From assembly GCA_017645765.1 (NCBI GenBank), contig JAGCNV010000016.1:36316-100315 (forward strand): a DNA stretch of 64,000 nt. The letters run 5' to 3'. The DNA comes from a bacterium (GTDB lineage Bacteria; UBP6; UBA1177). Shown piece after piece: positions 7,083 to 57,805 of this stretch. The notes under the pieces are model-generated. The model was not told the DNA's origin. It was given only the letters and a program-made list of their open reading frames with translations, and searched no databases. Each line of letters opens with the position of its first letter. Position 1 is the stretch's first letter. A program made the translations under genes and the position numbers.

Positions 7083-7094
7083 ATTCCCTCCTAC

Positions 7095-7850
7095 CTAAAT
7101 ATCAAGCAGTGCGGCACTGGTACCGGCAAAATCGCTGTAACCTACAGAAGGTTTGTTGGAAAAAACCGTGCAGATCGAATATTCGCCTCTCTGGTCTATA
7201 TCAAGACGATACCAGATCGAATCGTTGGATCCTGTCGAGATCTTCGAACGTATAATGGCGGAAAAAACGATATCGGGAAGAGTATTTGCAGCAACAGCGC
7301 TTCCGCACTTGCCGTTCTGAGGGTCGGCGCCGCTTACGAAATATCCGCCTTTCGTCTTTATCTTTCCGTTTGAATTAAAGTTCAGCAGAGTACTGAAACC
7401 GGTCAGCGAATCGTCTTCGTTGACAACTTCTATCGTGATCATGTTCGGAAGTTTGTTCTGTTTCAGCATAGTCGTGTTGGCATCGGCAGCATCCCAGGTA
7501 TCAGTATTCATCGACTGCTTCTGGTAAATCGCATATTCCGATTTTCTGAAGACCATTGCAGTCTGGCGGCGGATACCCATATAAACAGACATTTTGCCGC
7601 TATCATCATCACTTTCTTCGGCATCGACATTTGTCGGAATCTTGATACTGTTGTTGCTGGTACCTACGACCGTGTATCCCGCAACCGATCTCGCCTTGGA
7701 AAAATCGGAAAGAATTTCCATAACCGTCTGCAAACCGCGGTTTCTGGCATTCCAGACCTGGACCTTGGGAACCGCAACAGTTGCAACTACCGTCAGAATC
7801 CCCAAAGTGATCATCAACTCAAGCAATGAAAAACCGTTTGTCTTTCTCAC
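7095..7850 (-). CDS. GspH/FimT/FimU-like pseudopilin
   Basis: The track ORF begins at a TTG at 7865. A GTG at 7848-7850 with a GGAGG 5 nt upstream gives leader (M)RKTNG followed by FSLLELMITLGILTVV, a typical short prepilin leader. Confidence 0.55.
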   Translation of the reverse strand: MRKTNGFSLLELMITLGILTVVATVAVPKVQVWNARNRGLQTVMEILSDFSKARSVAGYTVVGTSNNSIKIPTNVDAEESDDDSGKMSVYMGIRRQTAMVFRKSEYAIYQKQSMNTDTWDAADANTTMLKQNKLPNMITIEVVNEDDSLTGFSTLLNFNSNGKIKTKGGYFVSGADPQNGKCGSAVAANTLPDIVFSAIIRSKISTGSNDSIWYRLDIDQRGEYSICTVFSNKPSVGYSDFAGTSAALLDI

Positions 7851-8067
7851 GTCAGCCTCCGTCAAACATCAACTCGATTTTTTTATTAAATATACAAATA
7901 AATTTCGTCCGCCTGTGTAGAAAAGAACCTCAAACAACCGCCGAAAAAGTACGGCTGTGTAGATTCGTACCATGTTTTTGAAATAAAATCAAGAATTTAA
8001 GCGATTTTTATTTTTTTCACTTTTCAAGCATATTTTTTGTCGTTTTTTTATGCTTTTTTTGTTGATT

Positions 8068-10997: not shown

Positions 10998-13900
10998 ATG
11001 AAAATTTTCAAGATTCTGGTTTGTCTCATGTTTGTTTTTGCCATTTCCGCGTGTCATGACAAAAAAACTACTTACGATTATCCAGACGAGGATCCTACAA
11101 CTGCCGAAAAAGGCAATGTCGGCGATCCGTGCCAGAAAAACCCTGACTGTAAAGAGGGTCTTTTCTGCATAGACAAGGTGTGCAGCGAACCTGTTGAAGA
11201 CGAAGACCAGATCAATGATCCGGACGAAAATCCGGAAAATGACGAAGACATTTCAGATACCGAACCGACGGACGATTCGGATACAGACACAAATGTGCCC
11301 GACACGAACCCGACAGACGATTCAGATACTGCGGTTCCTGACAAGGACGAACCGGAAGATACCGATACTCAGCCGGATGAAGACGCTGATATTCCCGATT
11401 ACACTCAGGAATGCGGCAACGGCATCCGCGATCAGGGCGAAGAGTGCGACAACGGTGCCGAGAACAGCGATGAACCCGGAATTCCCGGAATCACCTGCCG
11501 AACCGACTGCCTTTTTGCAAGATGCAGAGACGGCATTGTCGATTCAGGCGAACGCTGCGACGACGGTAATGCTTCGACCGGCGACTACTGCAGCCCCGAC
11601 TGCCAGACAATAACCGGTTACTGCGGCGACGGTGTCCAGCAGACAAACGAAAACTGCGATCCCGTCATCGAGCCGTACTGTGCTGATGACTGTTCAGGAA
11701 TCGCGGGATACTGCGGCGACGGCATAAAGCAGCCTCACGAGAAATGCGACAACGCCGAACCAGGCGAAGGCGGCGGCGAAGGAATCGGACCTTATTACTG
11801 CAGCATAGACTGTCAGGGAATCATGGGTTCATGCGGCGACGGCCGGCTCCAGGAGAATGAAGCATGCGATGACGGCAGCAAAAACGGCCGTTACGGCTAC
11901 TGCAATGCGACATGCTCAGGCGACGGTCCGAAATGCGGTGACGGAAAGACTGACCTCGGCCACGAAGCATGCGACGACGGCAACACTCTGGACGGAGATT
12001 ACTGCTCGGCAGACTGCCAGACTTCAAACGGAAGATGCGGCGACGGTATAAAACAGGATTTCGAGGTTTGCGACAATGCAACTTACGGCGAAGGAAAAGG
12101 TTTATACTGCGACGACGACTGCCAGACAGACCACGGTACATGCGGTGACGGCGTTATTTATGAAGAAGCTGGCGAAGAATGTGACGATGGAGGAAGCAAC
12201 AACCTTATATACTGTCCTTACAGCATAAATATGACCACCTGCACGCTGTGTTCCGCCTCATGTCATCCCAAAGAAGGCATCCCGAGATACTGCGGCGACG
12301 GCGTTGTAAGCAACCTCGCAGGCGAAGAGTGCGACAAGGCGAATTTCGGAGACGGAACAGGACCTTACTACTGCTCGGATGACTGCATGAAAGTCATAGG
12401 TTCATGCGGCGACGGCGTAAAACAGCCCAACGAAGCATGTGATCCGGGGCTTGATCCGTACTGCTCTTCCGACTGCAAAAAATCTGAAGGTGAATGCGGC
12501 GACGGCACGAGAAACGGCAGCGAAGAGTGCGATAACGGCGCAGACAACGGCAAAACGGACTGCGAGTACGGCCTGACAAGCTGCAAAGTCTGTACGACTT
12601 CATGCACCGAAACCGACGGAAAAGCGCATTACTGCGGCAACGAATCGCTTGATCAGGGCGAAGAGTGCGATGACGGCAACGAAAACGGAAATTACGGAAA
12701 ATGCAACAGCGACTGTTCAGGTCCCGGCAAGCACTGCGGCGACGGAAACATTGATTCCGAAAACGGCGAAGTCTGCGACAACGGCGCAGACAACGGCAAA
12801 AAGGACTGCGAGTACGGCCTGACAAGCTGCAAAGTCTGCACGACTTCATGCACCGAAACCGACGGAACAGCAGCTTACTGCGGCGACGGCAAACTAAACC
12901 GCGAAAACTGCGACGGTTATGAAAACTGTGTTGTTACCGCCGGCGTAAACGAAACCTGCGACGACGGAATAAACGACGGCCAGTACGGACACTGTCTGCC
13001 AGGCTGCTACGGTGCAGGACAACGCTGCGGTGACGGTGAAGTAAACGGCAGCGAAAAATGCGACGACGGCGATGAAGAAAACGGAAATTACGGAAAATGC
13101 AAAACAGACTGCTCAGGTCCTGGCGAACGCTGCGGCGACGGAACAATCCAGACTGAACACGGTGAAGTCTGCGACGACGGTGAAGACAACGGAACTTACT
13201 CGCTGAATGCGCCCGGACACTGCAATTCAGACTGCAAAGGATACGGAGAAGGCGGAATATGCGGTGACGGAACACAACAGCCGGAAGAAGCTTGTGACAG
13301 AGGTGAAGACCTCAACGGACGCGAATCGTGCGCTTACGGCCAAACAAGCTGTGAGGTATGCTCCACAAGATGCACACTTACAGCCGGCAAAACTGCATAC
13401 TGCGGCGACGGACATCGGGATTCCGACTACGAGGAATGCGACAGAGGTGCCGAAAACGCAGACTACAATGCTCCATGCAACACTGAATGCTCCGGCGTTC
13501 CGCCGAAATGCGGCGACGGAAATATCGACGAAACATTCGGTGAAACCTGCGATGACGGTGAAGACAACGGAACTTATCTCTTCGAACAACCCGGATCCTG
13601 CAACAGCAACTGCCAGGGTCAGGGCGAAGGCGGATGGTGCGGCGACGGCACGCAGAACGGCGGCGAAAGCTGCGATGCCGGTATACTCAACAACGGCGCG
13701 TACGGCGGACTCTGCGACACAACATGCAGCGGAAGCCCCACTTACTGCGGCGACGGAAAAATACAGAGCAGAGCGCTTTGCACTGCTGATGACGAGACTC
13801 TTGAGGCAAACGGCTACTTAAATCAGAACGATTTCCTGCTTCAGAACGGATTCAATGATGTAGAAGCCTGCCTGGCTCAACTTACCGATGCAAACGAAGT

Positions 13901-16382
13901 ATGTGACGAAGGCGACGGATTAAACGGAACTTACGGTCACTGCAACAGCGAATGCTCGGCAATACTTAAATGCGGAGACGGAATAATCCAGAGCGGAAAC
14001 GGCGAAGAGTGCGACAGCGGCGATGCAAACGGCACGACAGACCAGTGCGCGTACAACGAAACAAGCTGCAAACTCTGCAATGCTCAATGTAAGGAATTCA
14101 ACGGTCAGACTTCATACTGCGGCGACGGGATCGTCGACGAAGATGTCGAGGACTGCGACGACGGCGAAGAAAACGGAAGTTACGGAAACTGCAAATCAGA
14201 CTGTTCCGGACCGATGCCGAAATGCGGCGACGGAAATGTCGACGGCATATACGGCGAAGTCTGCGACGAAGGCTCAGACCTCAACGGAACCTACGGACAC
14301 TGCAGTTCAGGATGCCGCGGAATATCCGAATGCGGCGACGGAATACAGCAGGCGGAAGAGGCGTGCGATAACGGCGAGCCGTTTAACGGAACTTACGGAA
14401 ACTGCAGATCAGACTGCTCCGGAATTACCGGTTACTGCCAAGACGGAATTTTGCAGAAAGCTGCCTGCGGAGGAGAAGAAGGCTGTATCGAGATCCCGGG
14501 TGCCAATGAACAGTGCGATAACGGCGCGGACAACGGCAATACGAAATGTAACTACGGCGAAACAAGCTGCTATGTCTGCACGACTTCATGCCAGCTGACA
14601 AGCGGAACTGAGATTTCATACTGCGGCGACGGAAATGTCGACGGCATACACGGTGAACTCTGCGACGACGGTGAACTCAACGGAACTTTCGGCAAATGCG
14701 ACGAAAGATGTCTGGAAACGGTAACCTGGAGATGCGGTGACGGAAATCCTGATTTCGCTCACGGCGAGACCTGTGACGACAGCGACGGAGTAAACGGAAC
14801 CTATATTCTGGAGAAACCGGGAACCTGCAACTCTGACTGTAAAGAAAGAGGAGCAGGCGGATTCTGCGGCGACGGAATAATCCAGAGTGAACACGGCGAA
14901 ACCTGCGACGACGGTGAAAACAACAACACTCAGGGATTCTGCAACAGCACATGCAACGGGCAGACACCGGTCTGCGGCAACGGAATCGTTGATGCCGGCG
15001 AATTCTGCGATGACGGTGAAAACAAAAACAAATACGGAAAATGCAACGACGACTGCAGCGGTTACGGCACCAGCGGTTACTGCGGTGACGGAATAGTCCA
15101 GAAAAGCACTGATGCCGAGTGCACAGAGTATATTGCGGAAGATCCGGTCAACCGTAAACTTTGTGATGAAACAATAACGACAAACTGCTGCAAAGTCGTT
15201 GAGTTCGCAGCAGGCGATGCTTCCGAGGCATGCGATGACGGCGACGATAACGGACTGTCCCACGATCACTGCAACCAGCTCTGCAGCGGCATTTCATACT
15301 GCGGTGACGGTTTGGTAGGTAAAGATGAAGTGTGCGAAAGAATATGCGTAAGTTACGCAGAAGATCCGAACGATTGTCTTCTTTATGCAGCAAATTTTGC
15401 AGCATCAGTATACAAGAACTGCAGCCTTTTCCCGCAGTTCTCAAGCGGTGAAGTAACTGAATGCAACAGCGAATGTATGCCTGTCCTTACAAGCTGCGTG
15501 AATAACGATGCCTACAGAAGTCCGTTCTTCAACACTAACCAGACGATCTGCTACGACAATTCGGATGACATAACCTGCCCGGCAGAAGCTGAAGATTTCT
15601 ACGGCCAGAGCCCGCAGTTCCTGTATCTCGAGCAGGATTTTGAGGTCAACGGCGGAATAACTTCCGAAGCGGTTTCAAATACGGAATGGCAGACAGAGAC
15701 TCCTGCAACCTACGAAGGCTGTGCTGCCGGAGATTCCTGCACTTACGATGAAGCAGTCAACTACTGCTCGAACCTCGGATTAGGCGGTTACGACGACTGG
15801 AGACTTCCGAGTGCGTTTGATTTCCCGATTATCGCCGATTTCGAAGCGACACCTCATATCCGTTCAGAGTTCACAGATACAAAGAACGATATTTACTGGA
15901 CTGCCGAAGGACTTGCATTCTCGGCAGTCAACGGAACTATGACCGGCGGACACTCGACAGCTCAGGTAAAATGTGTCAGAAAAGCAGGCGAAGAAAGCTG
16001 CCCTGTATGCGGAAACGATCTCGAAATGTTTGAATACAGCGCATCGCTGATAACCGTTTTCAACAAAACAGCCATCGTTATCTGGCATTTCGGGAATCCG
16101 ATGACGAGCGACACATGGCAGCAGGCACTCGATACGTGCAAGAACATCAATATAAACGGTATCAACAGAATGAGACTTCCGACAGCCAGCGAGCTTATAT
16201 CGCTTATTGACGCAACAAACGGCGGTTCGCTGATCCCGGGATTCGCAGAAAGAGCATGGACTTCGACAACTTTGAGCGGCAGTCCGGAAAACAATGCCAA
16301 GGCTTATGTCGTCGACTTTTCGACTTTGAGTCTGGTCACCGATGACAAGACAAACAGCAACTATATAATTTGTGTTGAATAG
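10998..16382 (+). CDS. Giant secreted lipoprotein of 1794 aa. Domain order: lipobox, acidic D/T/P linker, about 40 tandem Myxococcus-type cysteine-rich repeats (CGDG-x-GEECDDGN-x-GDYCS-x-C), two C-terminal DUF1566 (Fib_succ_major-like) domains.
   Basis: N-terminus MKIFKILVCLMFVFAISAC. The repeat unit, e.g. CGDGKTDLGHEACDDGNTLDGDYCSADCQ, recurs throughout. C-terminus YDEAVNYCSNLGLGGYDDWRLPSAFDF and INGINRMRLPTASELISLID match the WRLP..EL signature of DUF1566. Confidence 0.85.
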   Translation: MKIFKILVCLMFVFAISACHDKKTTYDYPDEDPTTAEKGNVGDPCQKNPDCKEGLFCIDKVCSEPVEDEDQINDPDENPENDEDISDTEPTDDSDTDTNVPDTNPTDDSDTAVPDKDEPEDTDTQPDEDADIPDYTQECGNGIRDQGEECDNGAENSDEPGIPGITCRTDCLFARCRDGIVDSGERCDDGNASTGDYCSPDCQTITGYCGDGVQQTNENCDPVIEPYCADDCSGIAGYCGDGIKQPHEKCDNAEPGEGGGEGIGPYYCSIDCQGIMGSCGDGRLQENEACDDGSKNGRYGYCNATCSGDGPKCGDGKTDLGHEACDDGNTLDGDYCSADCQTSNGRCGDGIKQDFEVCDNATYGEGKGLYCDDDCQTDHGTCGDGVIYEEAGEECDDGGSNNLIYCPYSINMTTCTLCSASCHPKEGIPRYCGDGVVSNLAGEECDKANFGDGTGPYYCSDDCMKVIGSCGDGVKQPNEACDPGLDPYCSSDCKKSEGECGDGTRNGSEECDNGADNGKTDCEYGLTSCKVCTTSCTETDGKAHYCGNESLDQGEECDDGNENGNYGKCNSDCSGPGKHCGDGNIDSENGEVCDNGADNGKKDCEYGLTSCKVCTTSCTETDGTAAYCGDGKLNRENCDGYENCVVTAGVNETCDDGINDGQYGHCLPGCYGAGQRCGDGEVNGSEKCDDGDEENGNYGKCKTDCSGPGERCGDGTIQTEHGEVCDDGEDNGTYSLNAPGHCNSDCKGYGEGGICGDGTQQPEEACDRGEDLNGRESCAYGQTSCEVCSTRCTLTAGKTAYCGDGHRDSDYEECDRGAENADYNAPCNTECSGVPPKCGDGNIDETFGETCDDGEDNGTYLFEQPGSCNSNCQGQGEGGWCGDGTQNGGESCDAGILNNGAYGGLCDTTCSGSPTYCGDGKIQSRALCTADDETLEANGYLNQNDFLLQNGFNDVEACLAQLTDANEVCDEGDGLNGTYGHCNSECSAILKCGDGIIQSGNGEECDSGDANGTTDQCAYNETSCKLCNAQCKEFNGQTSYCGDGIVDEDVEDCDDGEENGSYGNCKSDCSGPMPKCGDGNVDGIYGEVCDEGSDLNGTYGHCSSGCRGISECGDGIQQAEEACDNGEPFNGTYGNCRSDCSGITGYCQDGILQKAACGGEEGCIEIPGANEQCDNGADNGNTKCNYGETSCYVCTTSCQLTSGTEISYCGDGNVDGIHGELCDDGELNGTFGKCDERCLETVTWRCGDGNPDFAHGETCDDSDGVNGTYILEKPGTCNSDCKERGAGGFCGDGIIQSEHGETCDDGENNNTQGFCNSTCNGQTPVCGNGIVDAGEFCDDGENKNKYGKCNDDCSGYGTSGYCGDGIVQKSTDAECTEYIAEDPVNRKLCDETITTNCCKVVEFAAGDASEACDDGDDNGLSHDHCNQLCSGISYCGDGLVGKDEVCERICVSYAEDPNDCLLYAANFAASVYKNCSLFPQFSSGEVTECNSECMPVLTSCVNNDAYRSPFFNTNQTICYDNSDDITCPAEAEDFYGQSPQFLYLEQDFEVNGGITSEAVSNTEWQTETPATYEGCAAGDSCTYDEAVNYCSNLGLGGYDDWRLPSAFDFPIIADFEATPHIRSEFTDTKNDIYWTAEGLAFSAVNGTMTGGHSTAQVKCVRKAGEESCPVCGNDLEMFEYSASLITVFNKTAIVIWHFGNPMTSDTWQQALDTCKNININGINRMRLPTASELISLIDATNGGSLIPGFAERAWTSTTLSGSPENNAKAYVVDFSTLSLVTDDKTNSNYIICVE

Positions 16383-16392
16383 GAGATTTACC

Positions 16393-17646
16393 ATGAAATC
16401 AGAAAAAATTTTCTCTTTTTTCCTTCTTCTTGCGGCACTTGTTTTCTGTATAAGCTGCGGCGGCAAAGGCGGCAAATACGACGATCCGGATGATTTCGAC
16501 GCCGTTGACACAGAAGACAAAGATAATCCCGCTCCTGTTACGGATGAAGACACTGACGATAACGGCGACACTGAACCGGACGATTCCGACACTGAACCCG
16601 ATGTAGACGACGACAACCCGGAAATTCCGGATGACACTGACGATAATGACAATCCGCGTCCGGACAGAGATGAGTCAGATTCAGACGAAGAACCTGTTCC
16701 CGACGAAGACAATCCTATTGAACCTTCAGACACAGACTCGATTTCACACAAAGAGGATTCTGAAATAGTCTGCACAGGTCAGACAAAATGCTATAATTCG
16801 AGTGAGGAAATCACATGTCCTTCCACTTCTGACGAGGATTTCTTCGGTCAGGATGCGCAGTATGCCAGCAAAGGTTACTGCTTCCCTAAAAGTTTGGATG
16901 CAAGCAATCCGCAAATCATTACGGACAACAACACCGGATTAGTCTGGCAGAGAAAGATTCCTGCGACTTACGAAGGCTGCACCGGCAACGATGGAGCTTA
17001 CTGTCTTTATCAGCAGGCACTAAATTTCTGTGAAAATCTCACACTCGAAAATTTCGACGACTGGAGACTTCCTACACCTGAAGAATTTGCAACGATCATT
17101 GATTACGGAAGAACTCCGGCTATAAACAAAGAAATTTTCTCGATTCCGAACACTTTATTCCGGGATTTCTGGACTCTGACAGGTTTATATGTCGATTTTA
17201 CGAAAGGAAGCACAGAATCAGGAGACAGCAGTGCAAAACTTGTAAGATGCGTCAGAGGAGACTTTCAGCTTCCGGTCGCCGATTTCACAATTACAAATGA
17301 GGGTAGTGACGAAGAAATCGTTGAGGATTCCGCTCATAATCTATATTGGACAAAAATAGAAAGCGAAGAAGCTCTCAAATGGAAAAAGGCTTTGAATTAC
17401 TGTAATAAACTCAATTACGGAGACAACTCAGGCTGGAGGCTTCCGAGCATCAACGAACTTGCATCAATCCTTGATTATTCGGCCTCGGAACCGGCTTCAA
17501 AATTTCCTTCACTCTCTTCGACTTCATTCTGGTCATCGACTTCCTACAACGAAAGCCCCGACTACGCATGGCGAATCAATTCTTCAAACGGCACGATAGA
17601 AACCGGCAAAAAAACCAAAGAAGCTTCGGTCATCTGCGTCAAATAG
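16393..17646 (+). CDS. Lipoprotein with acidic linker and two DUF1566/Fib_succ_major-like domains (smaller paralog of the preceding gene)
   Basis: AGGAGA sits 8 nt upstream of the ATG at 16393. The track start at 16372 overlaps the previous stop, so it was not used. Signal MKSEKIFSFFLLLAALVFCISC, then D/E/T/P-rich linker, then NFDDWRLPTPEEFATII and NSGWRLPSINELASILD. Confidence 0.75.
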   Translation: MKSEKIFSFFLLLAALVFCISCGGKGGKYDDPDDFDAVDTEDKDNPAPVTDEDTDDNGDTEPDDSDTEPDVDDDNPEIPDDTDDNDNPRPDRDESDSDEEPVPDEDNPIEPSDTDSISHKEDSEIVCTGQTKCYNSSEEITCPSTSDEDFFGQDAQYASKGYCFPKSLDASNPQIITDNNTGLVWQRKIPATYEGCTGNDGAYCLYQQALNFCENLTLENFDDWRLPTPEEFATIIDYGRTPAINKEIFSIPNTLFRDFWTLTGLYVDFTKGSTESGDSSAKLVRCVRGDFQLPVADFTITNEGSDEEIVEDSAHNLYWTKIESEEALKWKKALNYCNKLNYGDNSGWRLPSINELASILDYSASEPASKFPSLSSTSFWSSTSYNESPDYAWRINSSNGTIETGKKTKEASVICVK

Positions 17647-18516
17647 TTATTTTCCCTGATTTTTCTCAGTTTTAGTCTTTTTAAACAGCATAAAACCGCC
17701 GATAAAAAGAAAAATCGAAATCCACTGACTTGTTGAGAAAATCAAAAAACTTCCTCTTGTGTCAAAACGGAGAAATTCGATCAAAAAGCGGGTTACGGAA
17801 TACGAAAGAAGAAAAACAGACGAAATATAGCCTGGATTTTTGGGATTTTTCGATAAAGCGAGCTTTAAAAGGACAACAAATATCACGAAATTGCTGAAAG
17901 AATGAATAAGCTGCGTCGGGATTACCGGCTGCGTGTCGGACAAAAGATTCGTGTGATCGGGATCAAGGTGGTAAAGAGCAAACATCGTTCTTGAGCCCTG
18001 CGGAAAACGGATTCCGAAAATCTGCGATGGTATTCCGAAGCAGCAGCCTTCAAGAAAGCAGCCTATACGAGTGAGCCAGAGTCCGTTGGCGACACAAATA
18101 GAAGCGGCATCGGCAGTTTTAAGGAACGCGGTCCGGTCATGCGGATAAACGGCAAGAGTGCCGAGCGCACCAGCTAAAAATCCTCCGAGAAGCCCGCCGT
18201 AAAAAACATGTCCCGGAGTAAACGGATTGAGCATCCTCATAAAAAGATAGCTTATTCCGTTTTCCTTCAAACCTTCGATATAAGTCGGAAGCATCCCTTC
18301 AAAAAGTATGTGGAAAACTTTGGAAAAGAGCAGTGCACACGGAACAATTACGAGCGGTAGAAAAAACATTTTCTTAAAACTCAGACCAAACTGCTTTGAA
18401 GAAAAAATCATTATCGGCAGCGTCATGAAAAACGAAAAAAAGAGGATCGTCATGTATGCGCCGGGATAAGGAAATCCTAAGTAATCGAATATCGGCCTGA
18501 AAATATCGGGATTCAT
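17647..18516 (-). CDS. lgt: Prolipoprotein diacylglyceryl transferase-like membrane protein
   Basis: 289 aa polytopic membrane protein with a YGGLLGGFLAGALG segment and a G/C-rich RIGCFLEGCCFGIPS motif resembling the Lgt signature. 4-bp overlap with the upstream gene. Confidence 0.55.
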   Translation of the reverse strand: MNPDIFRPIFDYLGFPYPGAYMTILFFSFFMTLPIMIFSSKQFGLSFKKMFFLPLVIVPCALLFSKVFHILFEGMLPTYIEGLKENGISYLFMRMLNPFTPGHVFYGGLLGGFLAGALGTLAVYPHDRTAFLKTADAASICVANGLWLTRIGCFLEGCCFGIPSQIFGIRFPQGSRTMFALYHLDPDHTNLLSDTQPVIPTQLIHSFSNFVIFVVLLKLALSKNPKNPGYISSVFLLSYSVTRFLIEFLRFDTRGSFLIFSTSQWISIFLFIGGFMLFKKTKTEKNQGK

Positions 18517-20138
18517 GCTTTTACCTCTTGATTTTCCGTGTCGGCAGGAACACTCTCCGAAATGAGCGGACCGTTTTTGGATTTCAGATATCCGGAAACG
18601 ATAGCCTCTGTATTCGCCGCATTCAGCTTCAGTGTTTTGCAGTACTGCTGCACGAAATTCTTTACATAAAGATCTGCCGGCAGCTGGGCATATTTGTCGT
18701 TTTCTATCGCATCGAGAACCATTTTCGATATTTTTGTGCGGGAAATGATAAGTTCATAGGATATTCCGACTTCTTCCCGGATCTTTCTCAAGAGATCACC
18801 CGTCACCGACAAGTCATGATATTTATTAAATATTTCATTAACATCCACAAAATCGCTATTGGAAGATGAAACAACTTTCTTTTCGGCACTGCGCCCGAAA
18901 ACGTCCTTTTTGACAAGGACTTCACGCTTCTTTACACGGTTATACTTTTTGATGACTTCTCCGATTATGAAAATATCGGGAAATGAAGTCTCGAGCGAAA
19001 GAAGATGGCTGTTGATATCCATATCGTATTCGCGCCTTATTTCGGAATCATTAAGTTCTTTGAAGATCGTATCGACGAGGGAGTTGAGTATGAAAAGATC
19101 GCTGTCGCCGTAGATGTCGCGCAGCATCGGATTTTCGCCGACATAAATTTTTTTGAGCTTTTCATACTGGTTGTTTATGTCGAATGTCGAGCAGCCGCGG
19201 TCAAGACCGAACCATTCATAGTAGTTGAACGGCGTAACTTTAAGTTTTTTCTTGATCGAACTATGCTGAAACAGGTTGGCTGAAAGCGTGCTGGCGAACT
19301 TGTCGAGAGCATCTACGAATTCGGCGTTTTTCTCAAGAGTTACAACGGGTTTCATCGTAGCTACCGAAGTGGGGACCAGGTCAGAATAGGCTATTTCAGC
19401 TATCGGATCGGTTTCGATGCCGAAACTGTTGCTGATCAGAAAACGGTAAGGCTGCACGAGTTCCTTGTCGGCAGAATTACGCACACCGTTGTAAACAATG
19501 CCTATTTTCAGGTCGTTCACCACGTTCGCAATCTGATTTGCGGTTTTCGGGATCGCCTGAGAAAGCAGGACAAGCAGGTTCCGTGAAGTGAAAAGATAAT
19601 CGTTTTTAGCACGTCTTATATTCTGCGTTTCAAGCTGGATATCGTATTTGAGTTCGACGTTACGCAGCCTGTAGTTGAAAAATTCCCTGAAAAAATAGTT
19701 GCTTTTTTCAAAAGAAATGAAGTCCGGTGAAAGGAACATCAGCGAATAGTCGGCAATTCCGATGACATCCATAAGATCGTGATTTATTACCGAACCCATG
19801 TCGATGAAAACAAAATCGAACTGGACCTGCCCCATCTCGCCCTGCCAGCGCGTAAGAAGTTCGCTGATTTTCGAGCCCTGATGCTGCAAATTACTGAAAA
19901 AACTAAGATTCTGATAATCAGTCGAAATAAGCGGCAACACTGAAAAATGCTCTGCAACTTCATCGGAAACGGCTATCGTCGGAAGATTGAGATAGGAATG
20001 AAGCGTTCCGCCGTTCGGGGCCGCATCGATCAGGAGGACTTTTTTTCCTTTTTGGGCAAGGTAAATCGAAAGATTTGCGATTATCATCGAAGTTCCCGCT
20101 CCCCCTTTCGGAGAAAATGCCGCAATCAACTTTACCAT
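18513..20138 (-). CDS. ParA/MinD-like ATPase-fold protein with degenerate deviant Walker A (KGGAGTS, second Lys missing) and C-terminal RodZ-like HTH (HTH_25-type) domain
   Basis: N-terminus MVKLIAAFSPKGGAGTSMIIANLSIYLAQKGKKVLLIDA. C-terminus LLRKIREEVGISYELIISRTKISKMVLDAIENDKYAQLPADLYVKNFVQQY resembles the RodZ N-terminal HTH. Confidence 0.6.
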   Translation of the reverse strand: MVKLIAAFSPKGGAGTSMIIANLSIYLAQKGKKVLLIDAAPNGGTLHSYLNLPTIAVSDEVAEHFSVLPLISTDYQNLSFFSNLQHQGSKISELLTRWQGEMGQVQFDFVFIDMGSVINHDLMDVIGIADYSLMFLSPDFISFEKSNYFFREFFNYRLRNVELKYDIQLETQNIRRAKNDYLFTSRNLLVLLSQAIPKTANQIANVVNDLKIGIVYNGVRNSADKELVQPYRFLISNSFGIETDPIAEIAYSDLVPTSVATMKPVVTLEKNAEFVDALDKFASTLSANLFQHSSIKKKLKVTPFNYYEWFGLDRGCSTFDINNQYEKLKKIYVGENPMLRDIYGDSDLFILNSLVDTIFKELNDSEIRREYDMDINSHLLSLETSFPDIFIIGEVIKKYNRVKKREVLVKKDVFGRSAEKKVVSSSNSDFVDVNEIFNKYHDLSVTGDLLRKIREEVGISYELIISRTKISKMVLDAIENDKYAQLPADLYVKNFVQQYCKTLKLNAANTEAIVSGYLKSKNGPLISESVPADTENQEVKA

Positions 20139-20153
20139 TCAGCTCACCTCGTA

Positions 20154-20891
20154 TTACAGTTTTTCCTTTATTTTCTGAGTGTAGGATTCGATTTCTTCAA
20201 ATATTTCGTTCTCCAGCCGACCGGCTTCGAGTGATTCAGCCGCATAGTCGAGCGCCGTTTTTCCGCTGAAATCCTTCGAAAGAGGCGAAACATTCAGTGA
20301 CATAAGAAGTTTTGCATAATCCGCAAAACCTTTTTCAGCCGCAATTATAAAAAGAGTTTTTTTATCTTTGTCGCGCCTTTCGATGTCGGTCGATTTTTCT
20401 ATGAGTATTTTGAATAATTCGACATTTTCTTCTTTGGCAAGACTCAGCAGAGTGTTTGCCGCATCGCGCCCGAAGTTATCCGCAAGATTGGCGTCGGCAC
20501 CGTTTTCAAGCAGGAACTTCGCGCATTCCAAAGAGCTTCCGGCAGCAGCGTAGTGAACTGGAGTCTTTTCGGAATTATCCATTATTTTCAGATTTGCTCC
20601 GGCAGCTACAAGTTTTTTCAGCATCGTGCAATCTTTTTTAGCCGAAGCGAGCATGACTGCATTTTTTCCCGATTTATCGGCGAAGTTAAGAAGTTCAGGC
20701 ATTTTCAGGAAAATATCGAGAGCTTTTTCGTCATCGTTCCGGACCGCTTCCAAAAGCCCGGTGCCGTCAGCTTCATACCCCGCTTTTCTAAGCAGAGAAG
20801 CGTTGTCGGTCGAGCAGGAAAACAAAAGAAAAACGATAAAAAAAATGAATAAAACCGGAGATTTCATTTGCAAAACTTCTTTAAGGCGCAT
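20154..20891 (-). CDS. Secreted ankyrin-repeat protein
   Basis: Signal peptide MKSPVLFIFFIVFLLFSCS. Repeated ..G.T.LH.AA..G....LL..GA..N motifs (GKNAVMLASAKKDCTMLKKLVAAGANL, TPVHYAAAGSSLECAKFLLENGADANL). Confidence 0.8.
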   Translation of the reverse strand: MRLKEVLQMKSPVLFIFFIVFLLFSCSTDNASLLRKAGYEADGTGLLEAVRNDDEKALDIFLKMPELLNFADKSGKNAVMLASAKKDCTMLKKLVAAGANLKIMDNSEKTPVHYAAAGSSLECAKFLLENGADANLADNFGRDAANTLLSLAKEENVELFKILIEKSTDIERRDKDKKTLFIIAAEKGFADYAKLLMSLNVSPLSKDFSGKTALDYAAESLEAGRLENEIFEEIESYTQKIKEKL

Positions 20892-21778
20892 TAAAGAACA
20901 AAAAAGAATACCGCGCCGGCGGCAGCCGCAGCAACTATAAGAGCAAGCAGGATAACGACGATTTTTTTGCCCGTTCCCGGTTTGTTTACGCGGGTGATCT
21001 CGGTTTTTTCATCCTGCTCCTCGTCGTTGATGCTTTTTATTTTCTTCCCTTTTATATCTTTTCTGAGTTTTTCCTTTCTCGATTTTTCAGCTTCGAGCTG
21101 ATAAGGCTGCGGGTCATACTCCTCGCCTTTTTCGACAAATTCGAAGATAAAATCGCCGACTCTGATTTCGTCACCGTTCCTCATATCGACCGAATTGACC
21201 ACGGTATCGTTCACGATAAGCGGATAACCGGCGTTGTAGTCACCTTTTACAAGAAGATAGATATTGCCGTCAAAAACGATTTTCGAGTGGATAGGCGGAA
21301 TATTGTCTGCCGAAAGATAGACATCGGCGCTCGCATGGGTTCCGATGACGGTTTCACGACCTGCAAGCGGGAAAATCTTTCCGCCAAGGTAACCGTTCTT
21401 TGCAAGAAGCAGGTTGTCGGCAGCGATTTTTTTGCCGTCAGATTCTACCATCGGCTGCACAGTCTTGAGAAGCGCTTCTTCATCCTGTTCGAGATAGATA
21501 TTGTAATCGCCGACCGTTATGACGTTCCCGACAAAGATTTCAAGCTTTTCACCAACAAGTTCGCGTTCGTCGACAAAAGTGTGGTTGTAACTTCCGCGGT
21601 CGCAGATAATGATTCTTCCGTCAACGACCTCGATCTGGAAGTGGTATCTCGATACATTCCGTTCATCGAGGACGAGATCGTTTTTCGGACTTCGACCGAC
21701 GGTAATGAGATTGCCGTTGAATTCAAAGATATTAAGTTCGTTTCTGTCGTTTTCGACTATGAGTTTCAGCAGCGCCAT
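20891..21778 (-). CDS. Double FHA-domain protein with C-terminal transmembrane anchor
   Basis: Two FHA-like modules (ITVGRSPKNDLVLDERNVSRYHFQIE...GSYNHTFVD, and TVIGTHASADVYLSADNIPPIHSKIVFDGN...NDTVVNSV..GDEIRVGDFIFEF). C-terminus KIVVILLALIVAAAAAGAVFFFVL. Confidence 0.75.
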   Translation of the reverse strand: MALLKLIVENDRNELNIFEFNGNLITVGRSPKNDLVLDERNVSRYHFQIEVVDGRIIICDRGSYNHTFVDERELVGEKLEIFVGNVITVGDYNIYLEQDEEALLKTVQPMVESDGKKIAADNLLLAKNGYLGGKIFPLAGRETVIGTHASADVYLSADNIPPIHSKIVFDGNIYLLVKGDYNAGYPLIVNDTVVNSVDMRNGDEIRVGDFIFEFVEKGEEYDPQPYQLEAEKSRKEKLRKDIKGKKIKSINDEEQDEKTEITRVNKPGTGKKIVVILLALIVAAAAAGAVFFFVL

Positions 21779-21797
21779 TCACACCTCAAAAAAAACG

Positions 21798-22883
21798 TTA
21801 CCGCAGAATTTTCAACAATTTATCGAATCTGTCAAACATTCCTGAAAAATCTCCGTTTTCTTCCTCGAATCTGCGGACTTTTTCACCGATATCCAATGCA
21901 AGAGAGCGCTTTTTTTCAGGCTGAAGCAGCGATGCGGAAGTCTTCAGCAGCAGATAAAGGATTTCGTCAAAATATCTGTGGTATTCACCGAAACGGTATT
22001 CGACAGCAACTGATTTTCTTTCGTCGAGTACCGTTTCCCAGTTTACACTCGAAGTTTCAGCCGAAAAAGAAAGTTTCGAATAAAACTGCGGATACCTGCC
22101 GCCAAGATATGAAAAAAGTTTTTCAGAAAGTTCTTTAACCTTTTCAACAGGCATTACCTTTGCAAAAGCATCGAAAACTAGCTTGAAACAGGAAAAATAA
22201 AGATCCGATTCAATCTGAACGGGATCGTTTTCCAGAAAATCAAGACCGCTGCTGAAAAAAGATGAAGCCAGAATTTTTTCCGACACTTTTTTACAGAAAA
22301 CTGTCGGCTTGGAAACGTCGAGAGAACCGAGATAGGAACCGAATTTTACCGCATTTTTCTCAAAAACATAGCGTTTTTCAGCCGGATCGAAATAAGTGAA
22401 ACCTTTGAAGTTCCCTTTTTCAAAAGAGACGACATTCATAACCGTTCCGTGTTTCAGGCAGAGAAGCGCATCTTCTTTGTTTTCTGCAAACGACGAAACA
22501 AGTTTAGGAACATCAACGAAACGGCTCGGGGCATAAAGCGAAACCGGATAAGTAAAAAAATCGGTCAGCCAGCTGAAAACAAGATCGTTTTCTATTTTGA
22601 AAAGATAAAGATCGACCGGTTTTTCGCCAAGAATTTCAGTGATCGGAACATCTGTCACGAAGTCTTCGCAGTCGGAAAAAGCAAGCACCTTTGAAATTAC
22701 CGCACGCCCGTCGGAAATAAGCACATAAAGAGACTTGTTTCCAGCTTCGGCAAGCACTATACCGCGGCTGAGTCCGCCGTCACGCGCCAGATCGTTGACA
22801 AATGATGAAATATATTTTCCTTCAAAATCGGAAATAAAAAGTTTTAATTCAGAAAAAGGAATGATCATAACTCCCCCGAACAA
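21798..22883 (-). CDS. Hypothetical protein, first gene of the FHA/ankyrin/ParA-like operon
   Basis: 361 aa ORF with no recognizable motif. The start is uncertain: TTG at 22883 or ATG at 22868. The N-terminal segment (GLSRGIVLAEAGNKSLYVLISDGRAV) is faintly roadblock/LC7-like, which is speculative. Confidence 0.45.
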   Translation of the reverse strand: MFGGVMIIPFSELKLFISDFEGKYISSFVNDLARDGGLSRGIVLAEAGNKSLYVLISDGRAVISKVLAFSDCEDFVTDVPITEILGEKPVDLYLFKIENDLVFSWLTDFFTYPVSLYAPSRFVDVPKLVSSFAENKEDALLCLKHGTVMNVVSFEKGNFKGFTYFDPAEKRYVFEKNAVKFGSYLGSLDVSKPTVFCKKVSEKILASSFFSSGLDFLENDPVQIESDLYFSCFKLVFDAFAKVMPVEKVKELSEKLFSYLGGRYPQFYSKLSFSAETSSVNWETVLDERKSVAVEYRFGEYHRYFDEILYLLLKTSASLLQPEKKRSLALDIGEKVRRFEEENGDFSGMFDRFDKLLKILR

Positions 22884-22998
22884 GTCCTGACCTTATAGCA
22901 CAGATGATTTTTTTTGCAAAATGAAATTTGCCTTATTTTTGCCGACCTGTATAATTGTTCGTTTTTTTGCTTTCATTTTTAATGGAGAAATAAAAATT

Positions 22999-28100: not shown

Positions 28101-28164
28101 AAAAGCCGCAGAATTATCTTGCCCCCACTGAATTTGTTTCTTTAATTATGGAATAGGTGGAATT

Positions 28165-30234
28165 ATGACAAGAATTGAAAAACATCCTGTCCTTGAGATT
28201 CCTCAGGGCCAGAAAGAAGTCGAATTTACTTTCGACGGCAGAAAAATGACAGGTTACGAAGGAGAGGCGGTAAGTTCGGCTCTTTTCGCAAACGGTGTCA
28301 GACAGTTTTCGCTCCACAGAAACGGCAAAGCTCCGCAGGGTATCTTCTGCGCGAACGGCCAGTGCAGCCAGTGCACGGTAATCATCGACGGACTTCCGCA
28401 GAAATCGTGCATCACTCCGCTTAAAGCAGGAATGAAGATCGAAACTCTTAACGGCGTTCCGAAACTCGCTGAAGACGACAGACCGGTAGAACACACCGAA
28501 AGACGCAACGAAAGCTGCGACGTTCTCGTTGTCGGCGGCGGCCCGAGCGGTCTCAATGCTACTATCGAACTGGCTCAGCTCGGTTTCAGCGTAATTCTGG
28601 TTGACGACAAGGCGCGCCTCGGCGGCAAACTGCTGCTTCAGACACACAAATTCTTCGGAAGCGAGGAAGACTGCTTTGCAGGAACACGCGGTGTCGACAT
28701 CGCCCACATCCTCGAAGAGAAAGTCAGAAGCTTCAAAAACGTCAAAATCTACACCGAAACAAGCGTTATCGGCGTTTTCAAAGACAAAAAGGCTGGTCTT
28801 TTCGTCAAAAATAAAAACTATGTCACAGTCGATTTCAAAGGGCTCATCCTTTCGAGCGGCGCAAGGGAAAAGTCGGTCCTCTTCAAAGGCAACGACCTCC
28901 CCGGCGTTTACGGCGCAGGCGCTTTCCAGACGCTTCTCAACCGCGACCTCGTAAAAGCGGCTAAGAAGATCCTCATCATCGGGAGCGGAAACGTCGGTCT
29001 CATCGGCGCTTACCACGCTCTTCAGGCTGGGATCGAAGTCGCTGCGATCGTTGAGATCGCTCCGAAGATCAACGGCTACAAAGTCCATGCCGACAAAATC
29101 AGAAGAATGGGCGTTCCGATCTATCTCAGCACGACAGTAATCGCGGCTGAAGGCAACGGAAAAGTCGAAAGAGTCACAGTCGCACAGGTCGATGAAAAGT
29201 GGAACCCGATCCTTGAAACAGCAAGAACATACGAAGTCGATACGCTCCTTGTCGCTGTAGGTCTGAGCTCGGCTGACGAACTTTTCACGCTGGCCGACCA
29301 GTATAAGTTCAACGTAATGAAAACCGGAGACTGCGACGAGATCGCTGAGGCTTCTTCGGCTATGTTCGGCGGCAAAATCACCGGCAGAAAGATGGCTGCT
29401 GCTCTCGGAAAAACCGATGCGGCAATAGATGAAAGCTGGCTTAAAAAGGCAGCGGTCCTCAAATCGAGACCAGGAAACACGAAAGAGCCGGAAAAACCGG
29501 TCATCACGGCAAAATTCCAGCCTAAATTCTCCTGCCTTCAGGAAATTCCGTGCAACCCCTGCACCACAGTCTGCGCTAAAAAGGCGATCAAACTCAAAGG
29601 CGAAACCGGCACGATCATGGATACGCCTTACTTCGACGGAGAATGCATCGGCTGCGGAATGTGCGTAGCTGCATGCCCAGGCCTCGCGATCGCGCTTGCA
29701 AAGAAAGTCGACGATACTAAGGCTGAGATCGTTCTTCCGTATGAATTCAACTGCGATTTCAAAGAGGGCGACAAACTTCCGCTCACCGATATCGACGGCA
29801 AATTCATCGAAGAAGGAACGGTCATCAAAACGGCTTACAACAAAAAGTACAAAACTACTCTCGTAACACTTAGCGTTTCTGCTGCTAATGTCGCTGACAT
29901 CGCGGGAATCAGATACCAGAGCGAAGAAGTCACGAAACCGCTTGCGAAACCTGATTTCACCTACGCTCCGGAAAACAGCATAGTCTGCCGCTGCGAGAGA
30001 GTAACAGTCAAGCAGATAGTCGATTTCATCAAGGAAAACAAAGTCAGAGATGTCAACCAGCTCAAACAGATAAGAGTCGGAATGGGCGCTTGCGGCAGCA
30101 AGACATGCAGCGTTCTTATGCCGATGATTTTCAGAATGGCGGGCGTCGACTGGGCGGAAGTAACTCCCGGAAGGAAGAGACCGCTGACTGTCGAAACTCC
30201 AATGTACGCAATTGTAAACGAGGAGGAAAATTAG
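28165..30234 (+). CDS. FAD/NAD(P)-binding oxidoreductase alpha subunit with N-terminal 2Fe-2S, C-terminal 4Fe-4S ferredoxin and BFD-like [2Fe-2S] modules (sarcosine oxidase alpha / L-proline dehydrogenase alpha / opine oxidase A-like)
   Basis: CANGQCSQCTVIIDG is a 2Fe-2S motif. VLVVGGGPSGLNATIELAQLGFSVILVDD is a Rossmann fold. CIGCGMCVAACPGLAI is a 4Fe-4S motif. CRCERVTVKQIVDFIKEN...GMGACGSKTC is BFD-like. A 783-aa antisense ORF at 28114..30465 is judged spurious. Confidence 0.75.
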   Translation: MTRIEKHPVLEIPQGQKEVEFTFDGRKMTGYEGEAVSSALFANGVRQFSLHRNGKAPQGIFCANGQCSQCTVIIDGLPQKSCITPLKAGMKIETLNGVPKLAEDDRPVEHTERRNESCDVLVVGGGPSGLNATIELAQLGFSVILVDDKARLGGKLLLQTHKFFGSEEDCFAGTRGVDIAHILEEKVRSFKNVKIYTETSVIGVFKDKKAGLFVKNKNYVTVDFKGLILSSGAREKSVLFKGNDLPGVYGAGAFQTLLNRDLVKAAKKILIIGSGNVGLIGAYHALQAGIEVAAIVEIAPKINGYKVHADKIRRMGVPIYLSTTVIAAEGNGKVERVTVAQVDEKWNPILETARTYEVDTLLVAVGLSSADELFTLADQYKFNVMKTGDCDEIAEASSAMFGGKITGRKMAAALGKTDAAIDESWLKKAAVLKSRPGNTKEPEKPVITAKFQPKFSCLQEIPCNPCTTVCAKKAIKLKGETGTIMDTPYFDGECIGCGMCVAACPGLAIALAKKVDDTKAEIVLPYEFNCDFKEGDKLPLTDIDGKFIEEGTVIKTAYNKKYKTTLVTLSVSAANVADIAGIRYQSEEVTKPLAKPDFTYAPENSIVCRCERVTVKQIVDFIKENKVRDVNQLKQIRVGMGACGSKTCSVLMPMIFRMAGVDWAEVTPGRKRPLTVETPMYAIVNEEEN

Positions 30235-31383
30235 ATGAAAAGTTACGATATTCTCATAATCGGCGCAGGCAGCATCGGAACACCGCTTGCATACAACCTT
30301 GCGAAAAAAGGAAAGAAAGTCTGTGTAATCGAAATGAACGCTTCCACCGGAAGAGGCCAGAACAGAGCGGCTATCGGCGGACTCAGAGCGACATTCAGCG
30401 ATCCCGCGAAAATCAAGATCTGCGCTGTTTCCATCAATGAGATCAGCCACATGAAAGAAAATCACGGAATCGATGTAGACTGGGTCGAAGGCGGCTACAT
30501 CTACCCGATCTTCGAAGAACAGACCGAGAAAAATCTGAAAGAGCTTCTCAAACTCCAGAAGAGCATGGGGCTCAATATCGACTGGGTTTCAGCTGACGAG
30601 ATCAAGGAAAGAGTTCCCGGAATACGCCCCGAAGGACTTAGAGGCGGAACATTCTCGCCGAACGACGGAAGTGCTTCCCCGCTCAAGACGACAGGCGCTT
30701 TCTACAAGCTCGCAAGAGAGTGCGGCGCAGAATTCAACTTCCACGAAAAAGTCGTTTCGATGGAAGTCAAAGGCGGAAAGATCGTTTCTGTCAAAACTGA
30801 TAAAGACACTTACTGCGCTGACCTTATCATCAACGCTGCAGGTCCATTCAGCCGCGAGATCGGTGCAATGTGCGGAGTCGACATCCCTGTTTATCCGGAC
30901 TGCCACGAAGGCGGAATCACCGAGCCGGTCGAATACTTCCTCCGTCCGATGGTTGTTGACATCAGACCTGACGCGATCTCGCTCAACTACTACTTCTACC
31001 AGAACTACGAAGGTCAGTTCGTTTTCTGCATCACCCCGAAACCTTCGATCAAAGGAACCGATATCGACAATACGAGCAACTTCATGCCGCAGGTCGTCGG
31101 AAGAATGCTTTCGCTCTATCCGAGACTCCGCAATATCCGCATCAGAAGGACGTGGAGAGGCCTTTACCCGATGACTCCGGACGGTTTCCCGATCGTCGGC
31201 AGAACGAAAGAAGTCGAAAATATGTTCCTTGCAACCGGTATGTGCGGACAGGGCTACATGATAGGCAGCGGTCTCGGCAAGATCTTGTCGGAGATAATCG
31301 TCGACAATTCGCACGAATACGATTTCATCCTCGACCAGCTCACGCTTTACCGTGACTTCTCGGGCGACGAAATGCTCAAATAA
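30235..31383 (+). CDS. FAD-dependent oxidoreductase beta subunit (DAO/sarcosine oxidase beta-like)
   Basis: MKSYDILIIGAGSIGTPLAYNLAKKGKKVCVIEMN is a GxGxxG FAD fold. The start codon abuts the stop of the alpha-subunit gene. Confidence 0.75.
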   Translation: MKSYDILIIGAGSIGTPLAYNLAKKGKKVCVIEMNASTGRGQNRAAIGGLRATFSDPAKIKICAVSINEISHMKENHGIDVDWVEGGYIYPIFEEQTEKNLKELLKLQKSMGLNIDWVSADEIKERVPGIRPEGLRGGTFSPNDGSASPLKTTGAFYKLARECGAEFNFHEKVVSMEVKGGKIVSVKTDKDTYCADLIINAAGPFSREIGAMCGVDIPVYPDCHEGGITEPVEYFLRPMVVDIRPDAISLNYYFYQNYEGQFVFCITPKPSIKGTDIDNTSNFMPQVVGRMLSLYPRLRNIRIRRTWRGLYPMTPDGFPIVGRTKEVENMFLATGMCGQGYMIGSGLGKILSEIIVDNSHEYDFILDQLTLYRDFSGDEMLK

Positions 31384-43479: not shown

Positions 43480-43735
43480 AAGACCTCCGAAAACCATAAA
43501 ACCGCTGATTTTTACAACGCAAAACTCTTTCAGTCAAGAGGAAGGGCAACTTTCAAAATAAAAATCGGGAGTAAACATAAAAACTCATGGATTTTCTCAA
43601 AAAATTGAATACAATATCGAGGTTTGGCTGTGGAGACGTAAACGTCTCAAAAAACACAATGACCGTAAAGATGACGTACAGACTCATCTCTATGCGGTGT
43701 TGTGATGATTTAATTCATATTTCGAGGAGAGAAAA

Positions 43736-56206: not shown

Positions 56207-56238
56207 TTTCGACTCCATCAAAAAGTTTTCAAAACTAT

Positions 56239-57702: not shown

Positions 57703-57805
57703 TTTGATCTCCATCAAAAAAAGTTACTCAAACTGCAAAAAACTCTCACGTTTATTTAGTTCCATATACCTTTGATTTTTCTGACTCAAAATCAAAAAAT
57801 ATTTT

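Follow-up and report, generated by a model that had tools for sequence, protein, structure and literature searches.

Does a compact block of five genes, in which a ParA/MinD-like protein with an aberrant P-loop is fused to a RodZ-type helix-turn-helix (HTH), encode a positioning machine, an envelope-signalling module tied to lipoprotein maturation, or something else? The block lies on the minus strand at 22883-17647 of a 64,000-nt stretch (the window) of contig JAGCNV010000016.1, from a bacterium of the UBP6 lineage (assembly GCA_017645765.1). ParA/MinD proteins, the usual organisers of space within bacterial cells, depend on ATP hydrolysis for their mechanism. Comparison of the locus with its relatives established the composition of the module, the loss of catalytic residues and the conservation of that loss, the sensor-kinase neighbourhood, and the recent origin of the lgt and ankyrin adjacency. 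On this basis, and with confidence about evenly divided for and against, we read the conserved core as a membrane-proximal signalling scaffold built on a non-hydrolysing MinD-like protein, and neither as a dynamic positioning machine nor as a system tied to Lgt. The complex that we infer would form at the membrane in a phosphothreonine-dependent manner.

All five co-directional open reading frames (ORFs) of the first-pass annotation, which a model had made from the sequence alone, were present, and its domain calls (two FHA domains with a transmembrane segment, ankyrin repeats, ParA/MinD with HTH_25, and LGT) were mostly borne out by Pfam and NCBIfam. In order of transcription, with protein lengths in amino acids (aa), the features are:

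21798-22868, minus strand: hypothetical cytoplasmic protein (hyp), 356 aa; ATG at 22868, ribosome-binding site GGGGAG
20891-21778, minus strand: membrane-anchored FHA-FHA protein, 295 aa; Pfam FHA 1.2e-20, two stretches
20154-20891, minus strand: ankyrin-repeat lipoprotein, 245 aa (237 aa if from M9); Pfam Ank_2 5e-24
18513-20138, minus strand: ParA-J-HTH protein, 541 aa, whole gene; three domains
19254-20138, minus strand: ParA/MinD-like P-loop domain, aa 1 to ~295 of the 541-aa protein; Pfam CbiA/AAA_31
19023-19226, minus strand: J-like domain, aa ~305-372 of the same protein, without HPD; Pfam DnaJ weak, AlphaFold2 fold match
18615-18794, minus strand: RodZ-type HTH (HTH_25), aa 449-508 of the same protein, C-terminal; Pfam HTH_25 7e-17
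17647-18516, minus strand: lgt (prolipoprotein diacylglyceryl transferase), 289 aa; Pfam LGT 7.6e-33, 114 bits

The MinD-like domain has lost two catalytic residues

The P-loop domain was recognised by Pfam CbiA (41.3 bits, cut-off 25.4) and AAA_31 (30.9 bits, cut-off 27). The closest PDB sequence match of the 541-aa protein was A. aeolicus MinD (4v02, E = 5.6e-6), followed by FlhG (4rz3) and P. furiosus MinD (1g3q). The P-loop motif reads KGGAGTS at aa 11-17 (nt 20108-20088). When the protein was aligned with E. coli MinD, the two numberings coincided through residue 40. K11, G12, G13, G15, D38 and the Walker B aspartate (D113; FVFID113MG aligned with FIVCD120SPAG of MinD) were kept, and the substitutions were K16T (ACT, 20093-20091), T17S and D40A (GCC, 20021-20019). 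The deviant Walker A motif KGGxxK[ST] requires both lysines, and only K11 is present; the switch I aspartates are reduced to D38, with D40 lost. The P-loop had been described as lacking its signature second lysine. A Walker A lysine is indeed gone, but it is K16, and the signature lysine K11 is retained. Realignment to MinD did not restore a canonical motif, so KGGAGTS stands.

A motif census was made over 96 homologue clusters with a readable P-loop. Position 16 was T, S or A in 92 of them, with exactly KGGAGTS in 69 and another non-lysine variant in 23, so the window motif is not a sequencing accident. Position 40 within these 92 clusters was A in 90, S in one and unreadable in one, and the only clusters combining K or R at position 16 with D at position 40 were four distant ones (4/96). 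The GGxG loop and the rest of the pocket were invariant down to ~40% identity in the family alignment, which argues for a function and a selected state rather than decay. D40A is the classical substitution that makes MinD hydrolysis-dead. The 4v02 MinD chain reads LLIDAA in the region of position 40, the same as the window protein. The earlier suggestion of a pseudo-ATPase was thus strengthened, K16T being joined by D40A and both being fixed across the clade. These residues make it very probable that the protein is a pseudo-ATPase that does not hydrolyse; on the most economical view it may still bind nucleotide or phosphate, without cycling. The dead catalytic site is the derived state of the UBP6-like clade.

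It is unlikely that the protein is still an active ParA/MinD ATPase, which would rely on a basic residue from outside its non-canonical P-loop and position cargo dynamically, the FHA protein or hyp serving as adaptor or activator. Across the clade K16 and the catalytic D40 are lost together; D40A is the hydrolysis-dead MinD substitution, and the 4v02 chain reads LLIDAA at that place. The protein also has no C-terminal amphipathic membrane-targeting helix, and no ParB- or MinE-type partner was found nearby. Activity is favoured by the strict conservation of K11, S17, D38, the Walker B aspartate and the glycine-rich loop, by the KGGAGRS relatives, in which position 16 tolerates another basic residue, and by the ParA/MinD members whose key lysines lie at other positions (PMC11407121).

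A J-like domain and a RodZ-type HTH complete the 541-aa protein

The first-pass annotation had recorded the C-terminal RodZ-type HTH as an unusual fusion. The HTH is present, but the fusion proved not to be a one-off, and a J-like domain between the P-loop domain and the HTH had been missed. Pfam DnaJ scored 13.3 bits in the window protein and rose above the cut-off in two distant homologues (33 bits in L028 and 29 bits in L034). An AlphaFold2 model of aa 287-541 had a predicted local distance difference test (pLDDT) score of 76.8 overall and of 85-94 in its two folded domains. In a Foldseek comparison of this model with the PDB, many J-domains were matched with probability 1.00 and a TM-score on the target of 0.6-0.86, one of them being mouse 2cug, named 'pseudo DnaJ' by its depositors. 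The HPD motif was absent in all seven representative members spanning the family, in which the aligned position reads VGEN, TDD or DPE; the J-like domain therefore cannot be a standard Hsp70 activator.

The HTH matched in fold S. aureus YmfM (3fym, TM-score on the target 0.73) and T. maritima RodZ as solved with MreB (2wus_R, 0.74, root-mean-square deviation 1.6 Å, 28% identity), and its sequence matches were 3fym, Chlamydia CT009 (4gqm) and 2wus_R. The HTH of RodZ reportedly binds MreB and not DNA. Opposite Y53 and Y57 of T. maritima RodZ stand Y and F, both conserved in the family; K36, Y53 and Y57 are reportedly the MreB contacts (van den Ent et al. 2010). A hydropathy scan found no transmembrane segment in the 541-aa protein, no further Pfam domain followed the HTH, and the NCBIfam rodZ score was 36.8 bits against a cut-off of 375. 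Lacking a transmembrane segment, the protein is not a RodZ, although the two have the HTH in common. A motif in the linker that joins the J-like domain to the HTH, KKYNR.KK...LVKKDVFGR (aa ~395-415, window 18900-18990), is strongly conserved, down to ~40% identity.

The same ParA-J-HTH_25 architecture was found in Polyangiaceae, other Myxococcota and Acidobacteriota (Polarisedimenticolia), where the P-loop reads KGGAGKT or KGGAGRS, D40 is intact and the DnaJ model scores above its cut-off. The presence of the fusion in several phyla indicates that it is old and has spread across them. Gene context in Myxococcota and Acidobacteriota was considered and set aside: only scattered kinase or FHA genes occur at a distance of a few kb, an uninformative finding where kinase genes are so numerous, and ORF calls at high GC are unreliable. 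In six genomes (L019 and L021-L025, around 8001-9630) the gene is split in two with a 4-bp overlap, giving a ParA-like protein of 297-305 aa and a J/HTH protein of 237-253 aa (for example L021, 8001-8900 and 8897-9619); L026 has a probable frameshift instead of a split. The 4-bp overlap supports the view that the two halves work as one unit. Literature searches found no paper describing a ParA-J-HTH family, or an FHA or RodZ-like system of this kind.

The 541-aa protein could instead be a transcription regulator, with an Xre-type HTH on DNA, ParA- and J-like domains that oligomerise or sense a ligand, and the FHA protein and a kinase as modulators. We consider this doubtful. Type Ia ParA proteins, which carry an HTH and autoregulate, provide the model for it. 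It is favoured by Pfam HTH_19 on the HTH region, by HTH_31 and HTH_3 there in relatives, and by Foldseek matches to SinR, restriction-modification C-proteins, DdrO and ClgR at a TM-score on the target of 0.6-0.74. The top sequence and fold matches, however, are of the RodZ group (YmfM, CT009 and T. maritima RodZ), the aromatics at two reported positions of the RodZ-MreB interface are conserved, and no repeated operator-like sequence was noticed upstream, in a reading that included no search aimed at operators.

The FHA protein is a probable phosphothreonine reader, and relatives encode a sensor kinase in the same block

In an alignment of 15 orthologs of the FHA-FHA protein, the GR, SR(H/Y)H and N-x-T residues of FHA-1 (aa 25-90) were kept in all. 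FHA-2 (aa ~131-216) had T or S for the Arg and IPxxH/Y in place of SxxH in every one of them. By these residues FHA-1 carries the canonical phosphothreonine-binding set and FHA-2 is degenerate. A Lys/Glu-rich linker helix and a conserved TE(I/V)T motif precede the C-terminal transmembrane anchor (aa 267-295, hydropathy scan), and the TE(I/V)T motif is a candidate phospho-acceptor. NCBIfam FhaB_Rv0019c gave a partial match to the protein (1.6e-13; 51 bits against a cut-off of 125).

To compare gene order, ORFs called at 47 loci were matched against the proteins of the window and of the neighbours; the synteny covers 26 species-level genomes (L001-L026). The closest are rumen and gut metagenome-assembled genomes (MAGs) labelled 'bacterium UBP6_UBA1177', 'uncultured Spirochaetales' or 'bacterium', and relatives further away carry the label Candidatus Sumerlaeota. 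In the window and in L001-L008, pepF is followed by hyp, FHA, Ank, ParA-J-HTH and lgt, and then by DUF1566 genes. In L009-L026, where identity to the window ParA-J-HTH protein falls from 65% to 36%, GDH is followed by hyp, FHA, in some an MtnA-like gene, a lipoprotein gene, ParA-J-HTH, a Ser/Thr kinase gene, in some an Hsp33-like gene, and NadK. The latter order was seen wherever the contig reaches, those of L013, L015 and L017 ending early.

In each of the 18 non-rumen relatives the kinase gene directly follows the ParA-like gene; its product combines a Hanks domain and a PEGA ectodomain with one transmembrane segment (about aa 359-390). The presence of FHA domains had been taken to imply signalling through phosphothreonine, and this neighbour supplies the Hanks-type kinase that such signalling calls for. 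In L020 (681-2465) the place of hyp is taken by another Ser/Thr kinase, one fused to an FGE-sulfatase domain.

A tblastn search of the window found no kinase, no MtnA and no TPR lipoprotein; MinD was likewise not found within the 64 kb. Kinases of 465 aa, 66-69% identical to that of L016, were abundant in the same kinds of sample. In the rumen clade the gene stands at a locus of its own, in the order OmpH, PEGA-type Ser/Thr kinase, Hsp33-like, NadK and Smr (L049, 8355-12409; also L050 and L051). The ancestral kinase-Hsp33-NadK segment is thus intact and detached from the 541-aa protein's gene in that clade. The L049 locus lies downstream of a Wzz/BY-kinase gene and a gene for an RlpA-like SPOR protein, an envelope-related neighbourhood. 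The kinase MBP5405693.1 and an 82%-identical homologue of the 541-aa protein, MBP5406728.1, have accessions ~1,000 apart; we therefore take both to come from one MAG, and the rumen clade to have a kinase still. A look for a kinase elsewhere in the genome, which had been proposed as a check, was in this way rewarded.

As to whether the block as first drawn is conserved in relatives, hyp, FHA, a lipoprotein slot and ParA-J-HTH are, but lgt is not, the ankyrin gene is local, and hyp is lost in two genomes. There is accordingly a case, to which we give little probability, that no functional module exists and that the genes, each acting independently, have stayed side by side by descent in a lineage that rearranges slowly. 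Unrelated housekeeping genes stand in the block (MtnA, Hsp33-like, NadK and GDH), hyp is dispensable in two relatives, kinase, lipoprotein and lgt are swapped in the rumen clade, and distant hyp homologues have no FHA or ParA neighbours. Against this, the order from FHA to ParA-J-HTH and kinase, with its junctions tight or overlapping, persists at protein identities as low as 36-46%, FHA protein and Hanks kinase are a recognised functional pair, and hyp, FHA, lipoprotein and ParA-J-HTH genes remained together when the block broke in the rumen clade. A reading as anti-phage defence was rejected, since PADLOC gave only generic ankyrin and P-loop matches.

The ankyrin lipoprotein and lgt are local replacements

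The ankyrin protein had been called secreted. Ankyrin repeats and an export signal are there, but the signal is of the lipoprotein type, with a lipobox read from the sequence as LLFS-C26, and not a plain secretory one. An ankyrin gene was found in this slot only in the window and L001-L008. A lipoprotein gene nevertheless precedes ParA-J-HTH in the window as well as in L011, L016, L020 and L023, the four relatives that were checked; in these four the product is a TPR/transglutaminase-like protein of ~1,200 aa or a shortened homologue of 223 aa. Homology between the ankyrin lipoprotein and these proteins was tested and rejected, the BLASTP match (E = 0.18) being confined to the signal peptide. 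By this sequence comparison the ankyrin gene is a lineage-specific, non-homologous replacement of the TPR/transglutaminase lipoprotein gene; because the lipoproteins are not homologous, what is conserved is a slot for a periplasmic helical-repeat lipoprotein and not its occupant.

The lgt gene product scored 114 bits with Pfam LGT (cut-off 24.9) and 93.9 with NCBIfam TIGR00544 (cut-off 118.9). It follows ParA-J-HTH only in the shallow rumen clade, that is, in the window and L001-L008, where the 541-aa protein is at least 81% identical, and it sits in the slot held by the kinase gene in non-rumen relatives. The adjacency arose by recent local rearrangement, as a consequence of the break that detached kinase, Hsp33 and NadK, and lgt is probably adjacent to the module and not part of it. 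The proposed link of the module to lipoprotein maturation through Lgt is not upheld: with the kinase retained elsewhere and lgt in the vacated position, its basis is removed.

The hypothetical protein is an accessory component at best

No match to hyp was found in Pfam, NCBIfam, PADLOC or the PDB sequences. Among 22 members of its family there was no Pfam match at E up to 10, and a PDB profile search was also empty; hydropathy gave no hydrophobic segment. AlphaFold2 modelled it with a pLDDT of 86.4 and a predicted TM-score of 0.82 as two beta-alpha-beta3 modules and a C-terminal helical bundle. The only PDB structures that Foldseek returned for this model were PCNA/beta-clamp and PhuS, at a TM-score of ~0.1-0.16, and these were dismissed as noise. 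The C-terminal helical domain resembled the C-terminus of a DUF4388 (PATAN) protein (hhalign probability 92%). A by-eye likeness of the N-terminal modules to DUF4388/PATAN was not accepted, as hhalign backed the C-terminal domain only, and is kept as a lead. An exhaustive hidden Markov model search of 1.84 billion representatives returned only 36 clusters for the family. Distant homologues lie in unrelated contexts, without FHA or ParA neighbours, and the gene is cleanly deleted in two close relatives, L008 (2705-2882), where the final ~40 nt survive as a 3' remnant, and L005 (6240-6361). Hyp is therefore an accessory component at best.

Gene junctions and the promoter region

The genes form one compact co-directional block, as their layout supports. 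The genes had been reported to overlap by 1-4 bp or to abut; overlaps hold for the ParA-like/lgt junction (4 bp, ATGA) and, less securely, for FHA/Ank (1 bp, TAATG), but not for hyp/FHA (19-nt spacer with the ribosome-binding site GAGGTG) or Ank/ParA-like (15-nt spacer with GAGGTGA, also a ribosome-binding site). The FHA/Ank overlap depends on an Ank start at 20891 and is uncertain because in four close relatives Ank is called 16-19 nt past the FHA stop. For hyp, the ATG at 22868 after GGGGAG is preferred, and the TTG at 22883 is less likely. Downstream, a convergent gene abuts lgt.

Upstream lies the divergent pepF. Its ORF as listed begins 26 codons before the start implied by 588-aa homologues (window 22921-22998). 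From this comparison the true start is probably M27 at 22999, and with that start the divergent promoter region widens to 130 bp. One candidate promoter was read there by eye:

22891-22919, minus strand: candidate promoter, TTGCAA (22919-22914), 17-nt spacer, TGC-TATAAG (22896-22891)

The TTGCAA-17-TATAAG string, a candidate for the promoter of the block, is kept in L005 directly 5' of the FHA gene, where hyp is deleted. A consensus promoter scanner did not list the candidate at 22919-22891, and a promoter and terminator scan of the locus did no better than on shuffled sequence.

Other features of the window

Downstream of the block, window 10998-17646 encodes a 1794-aa Cys- and Asp-rich repeat lipoprotein (CGDG...C) and then an overlapping 424-aa lipoprotein with two Lcl_C/DUF1566 domains; paralogues are abundant in relatives. 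Two adjacent genes at 6543-7865, ~10 kb from the block, carry N_methyl motifs (type IV pilin or type II secretion pseudopilin). The 888-aa protein of 8068-10734 has Reg_prop beta-propeller repeats and a C-terminal AraC-type HTH, with no kinase or receiver domain detected in it, and is a truncated relative of hybrid two-component regulators. A 783-aa ORF at 28114-30465 on the minus strand has no Pfam match, is antisense to a well-supported gene for a 689-aa Fe-S/FAD oxidoreductase (28165-30234, plus strand) and is almost certainly spurious. Window 40171-43497 encodes a 1108-aa tricorn-like protease (PD40 repeats, Tricorn_C1 and Peptidase_S41). Tandem ORFs of 476, 492 and 492 aa lie at 54791-59284; the first is a serpin (Pfam 1.7e-101), and the equal size of the other two suggests that the three may be a serpin array.

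Discussion

How might the module work? In the scheme that we propose, the ectodomain of the kinase, perhaps with help from the lipoprotein, would sense a cue in the envelope, and the kinase would phosphorylate threonines; candidate sites are the juxtamembrane TE(I/V)T motif in the FHA protein and the linker in the 541-aa protein. FHA-1 would dock on the phosphothreonine and a complex would assemble at the membrane. The dead MinD-like domain could act there as a stable platform for dimerisation or docking, possibly nucleotide-bound and non-hydrolysing, by a logic that we liken to that of the landmark proteins TadZ and CpaE. The RodZ-type HTH would be the output, contacting MreB, another cytoskeletal or nucleoid partner, or DNA; coupling to MreB or to such a partner would make envelope growth or shape respond to the signal.

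Several observations weigh against this signalling scaffold. The source organism, a rumen bacterium, is uncultured. The block also holds housekeeping genes (MtnA, Hsp33-like and NadK, with GDH upstream), so the conserved order may partly reflect shared descent and not function. Separation of kinase and module is tolerated in the rumen clade, and hyp is deleted in two close relatives. No MreB gene was found within the 64-kb window, and the residue opposite K36 of T. maritima RodZ is not conserved. HTH_25 belongs to the Xre-type superfamily, and Foldseek also lists SinR, C-proteins and ClgR; on grounds of fold, DNA binding by the HTH would be equally possible. By analogy with family members that place key lysines elsewhere, some residual ATPase activity may also persist (PMC11407121).

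A bolder form of the scaffold reading seems improbable to us. It makes the 541-aa protein a soluble, non-hydrolysing, MinD-derived analogue of RodZ, which an FHA reader of marks set by the PEGA kinase would recruit to the membrane, so coupling MreB-directed growth to an extracytoplasmic signal. Such a phospho-switchable replacement for RodZ would be shared, in catalytically active form, with Myxococcota and Acidobacteriota.

The clade has fixed the aspartate-to-alanine change used experimentally to abolish hydrolysis and has lost the P-loop lysine, keeping the remaining pocket. Active sister lineages with the same three domains and the dead clade form a natural active/dead pair, from which it could be learned what a MinD fold does without cycling. 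The RodZ-type HTH fusion and the neighbourhood of FHA protein and sensor kinase suggest a route from Ser/Thr phosphorylation to the cell-shape machinery outside Actinobacteria. The locus also holds a lesson, in that the eye-catching linkage to lgt came about by recent rearrangement, and too much should not be made of it.

Among known systems, MinD and FlhG are the top PDB sequence matches; the 541-aa protein shares the numbering of E. coli MinD to residue 40 and keeps K11, D38 and the Walker B aspartate. It differs from MinD and FlhG in K16T, D40A, an insertion of ~50 aa in the P-loop domain, the absence of a membrane-targeting helix and the added C-terminal J-like domain and HTH, and no MinC, MinE or flagellar genes lie nearby. 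TadZ has an atypical Walker A and very low ATPase activity. TadZ/CpaE resemble our protein as ParA/MinD-superfamily members that serve as a localisation hub and not as a dynamic ATPase (PMC11407121; bioRxiv 10.64898/2026.07.08.737194). The likeness ends with their N-terminal atypical receiver domain, for which the 541-aa protein has no room (its P-loop starts at residue 11), and with its other C-terminal domains, and the locus has no tad or cpa genes. RodZ shares the HTH_25 domain and the aromatics at the Y53/Y57 positions of the T. maritima protein, but in the 541-aa protein the HTH is C-terminal instead of N-terminal, transmembrane and periplasmic domains are absent and the K36 equivalent is unconserved. 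The J-like domain has the four-helix J fold without HPD of the 'pseudo DnaJ' 2cug; compared with J-like domains of that type, it sits between a P-loop domain and an HTH and has no G/F or zinc-finger region. The actinobacterial FhaA/FhaB(FipA)-PknA/PknB system differs in that here two FHA domains have a C-terminal anchor, PEGA stands in for PASTA, a MinD-like scaffold is added and the block has no PP2C phosphatase, RodA or penicillin-binding protein. What the two have in common is a membrane-anchored FHA protein and a transmembrane Hanks kinase with an extracytoplasmic sensor.

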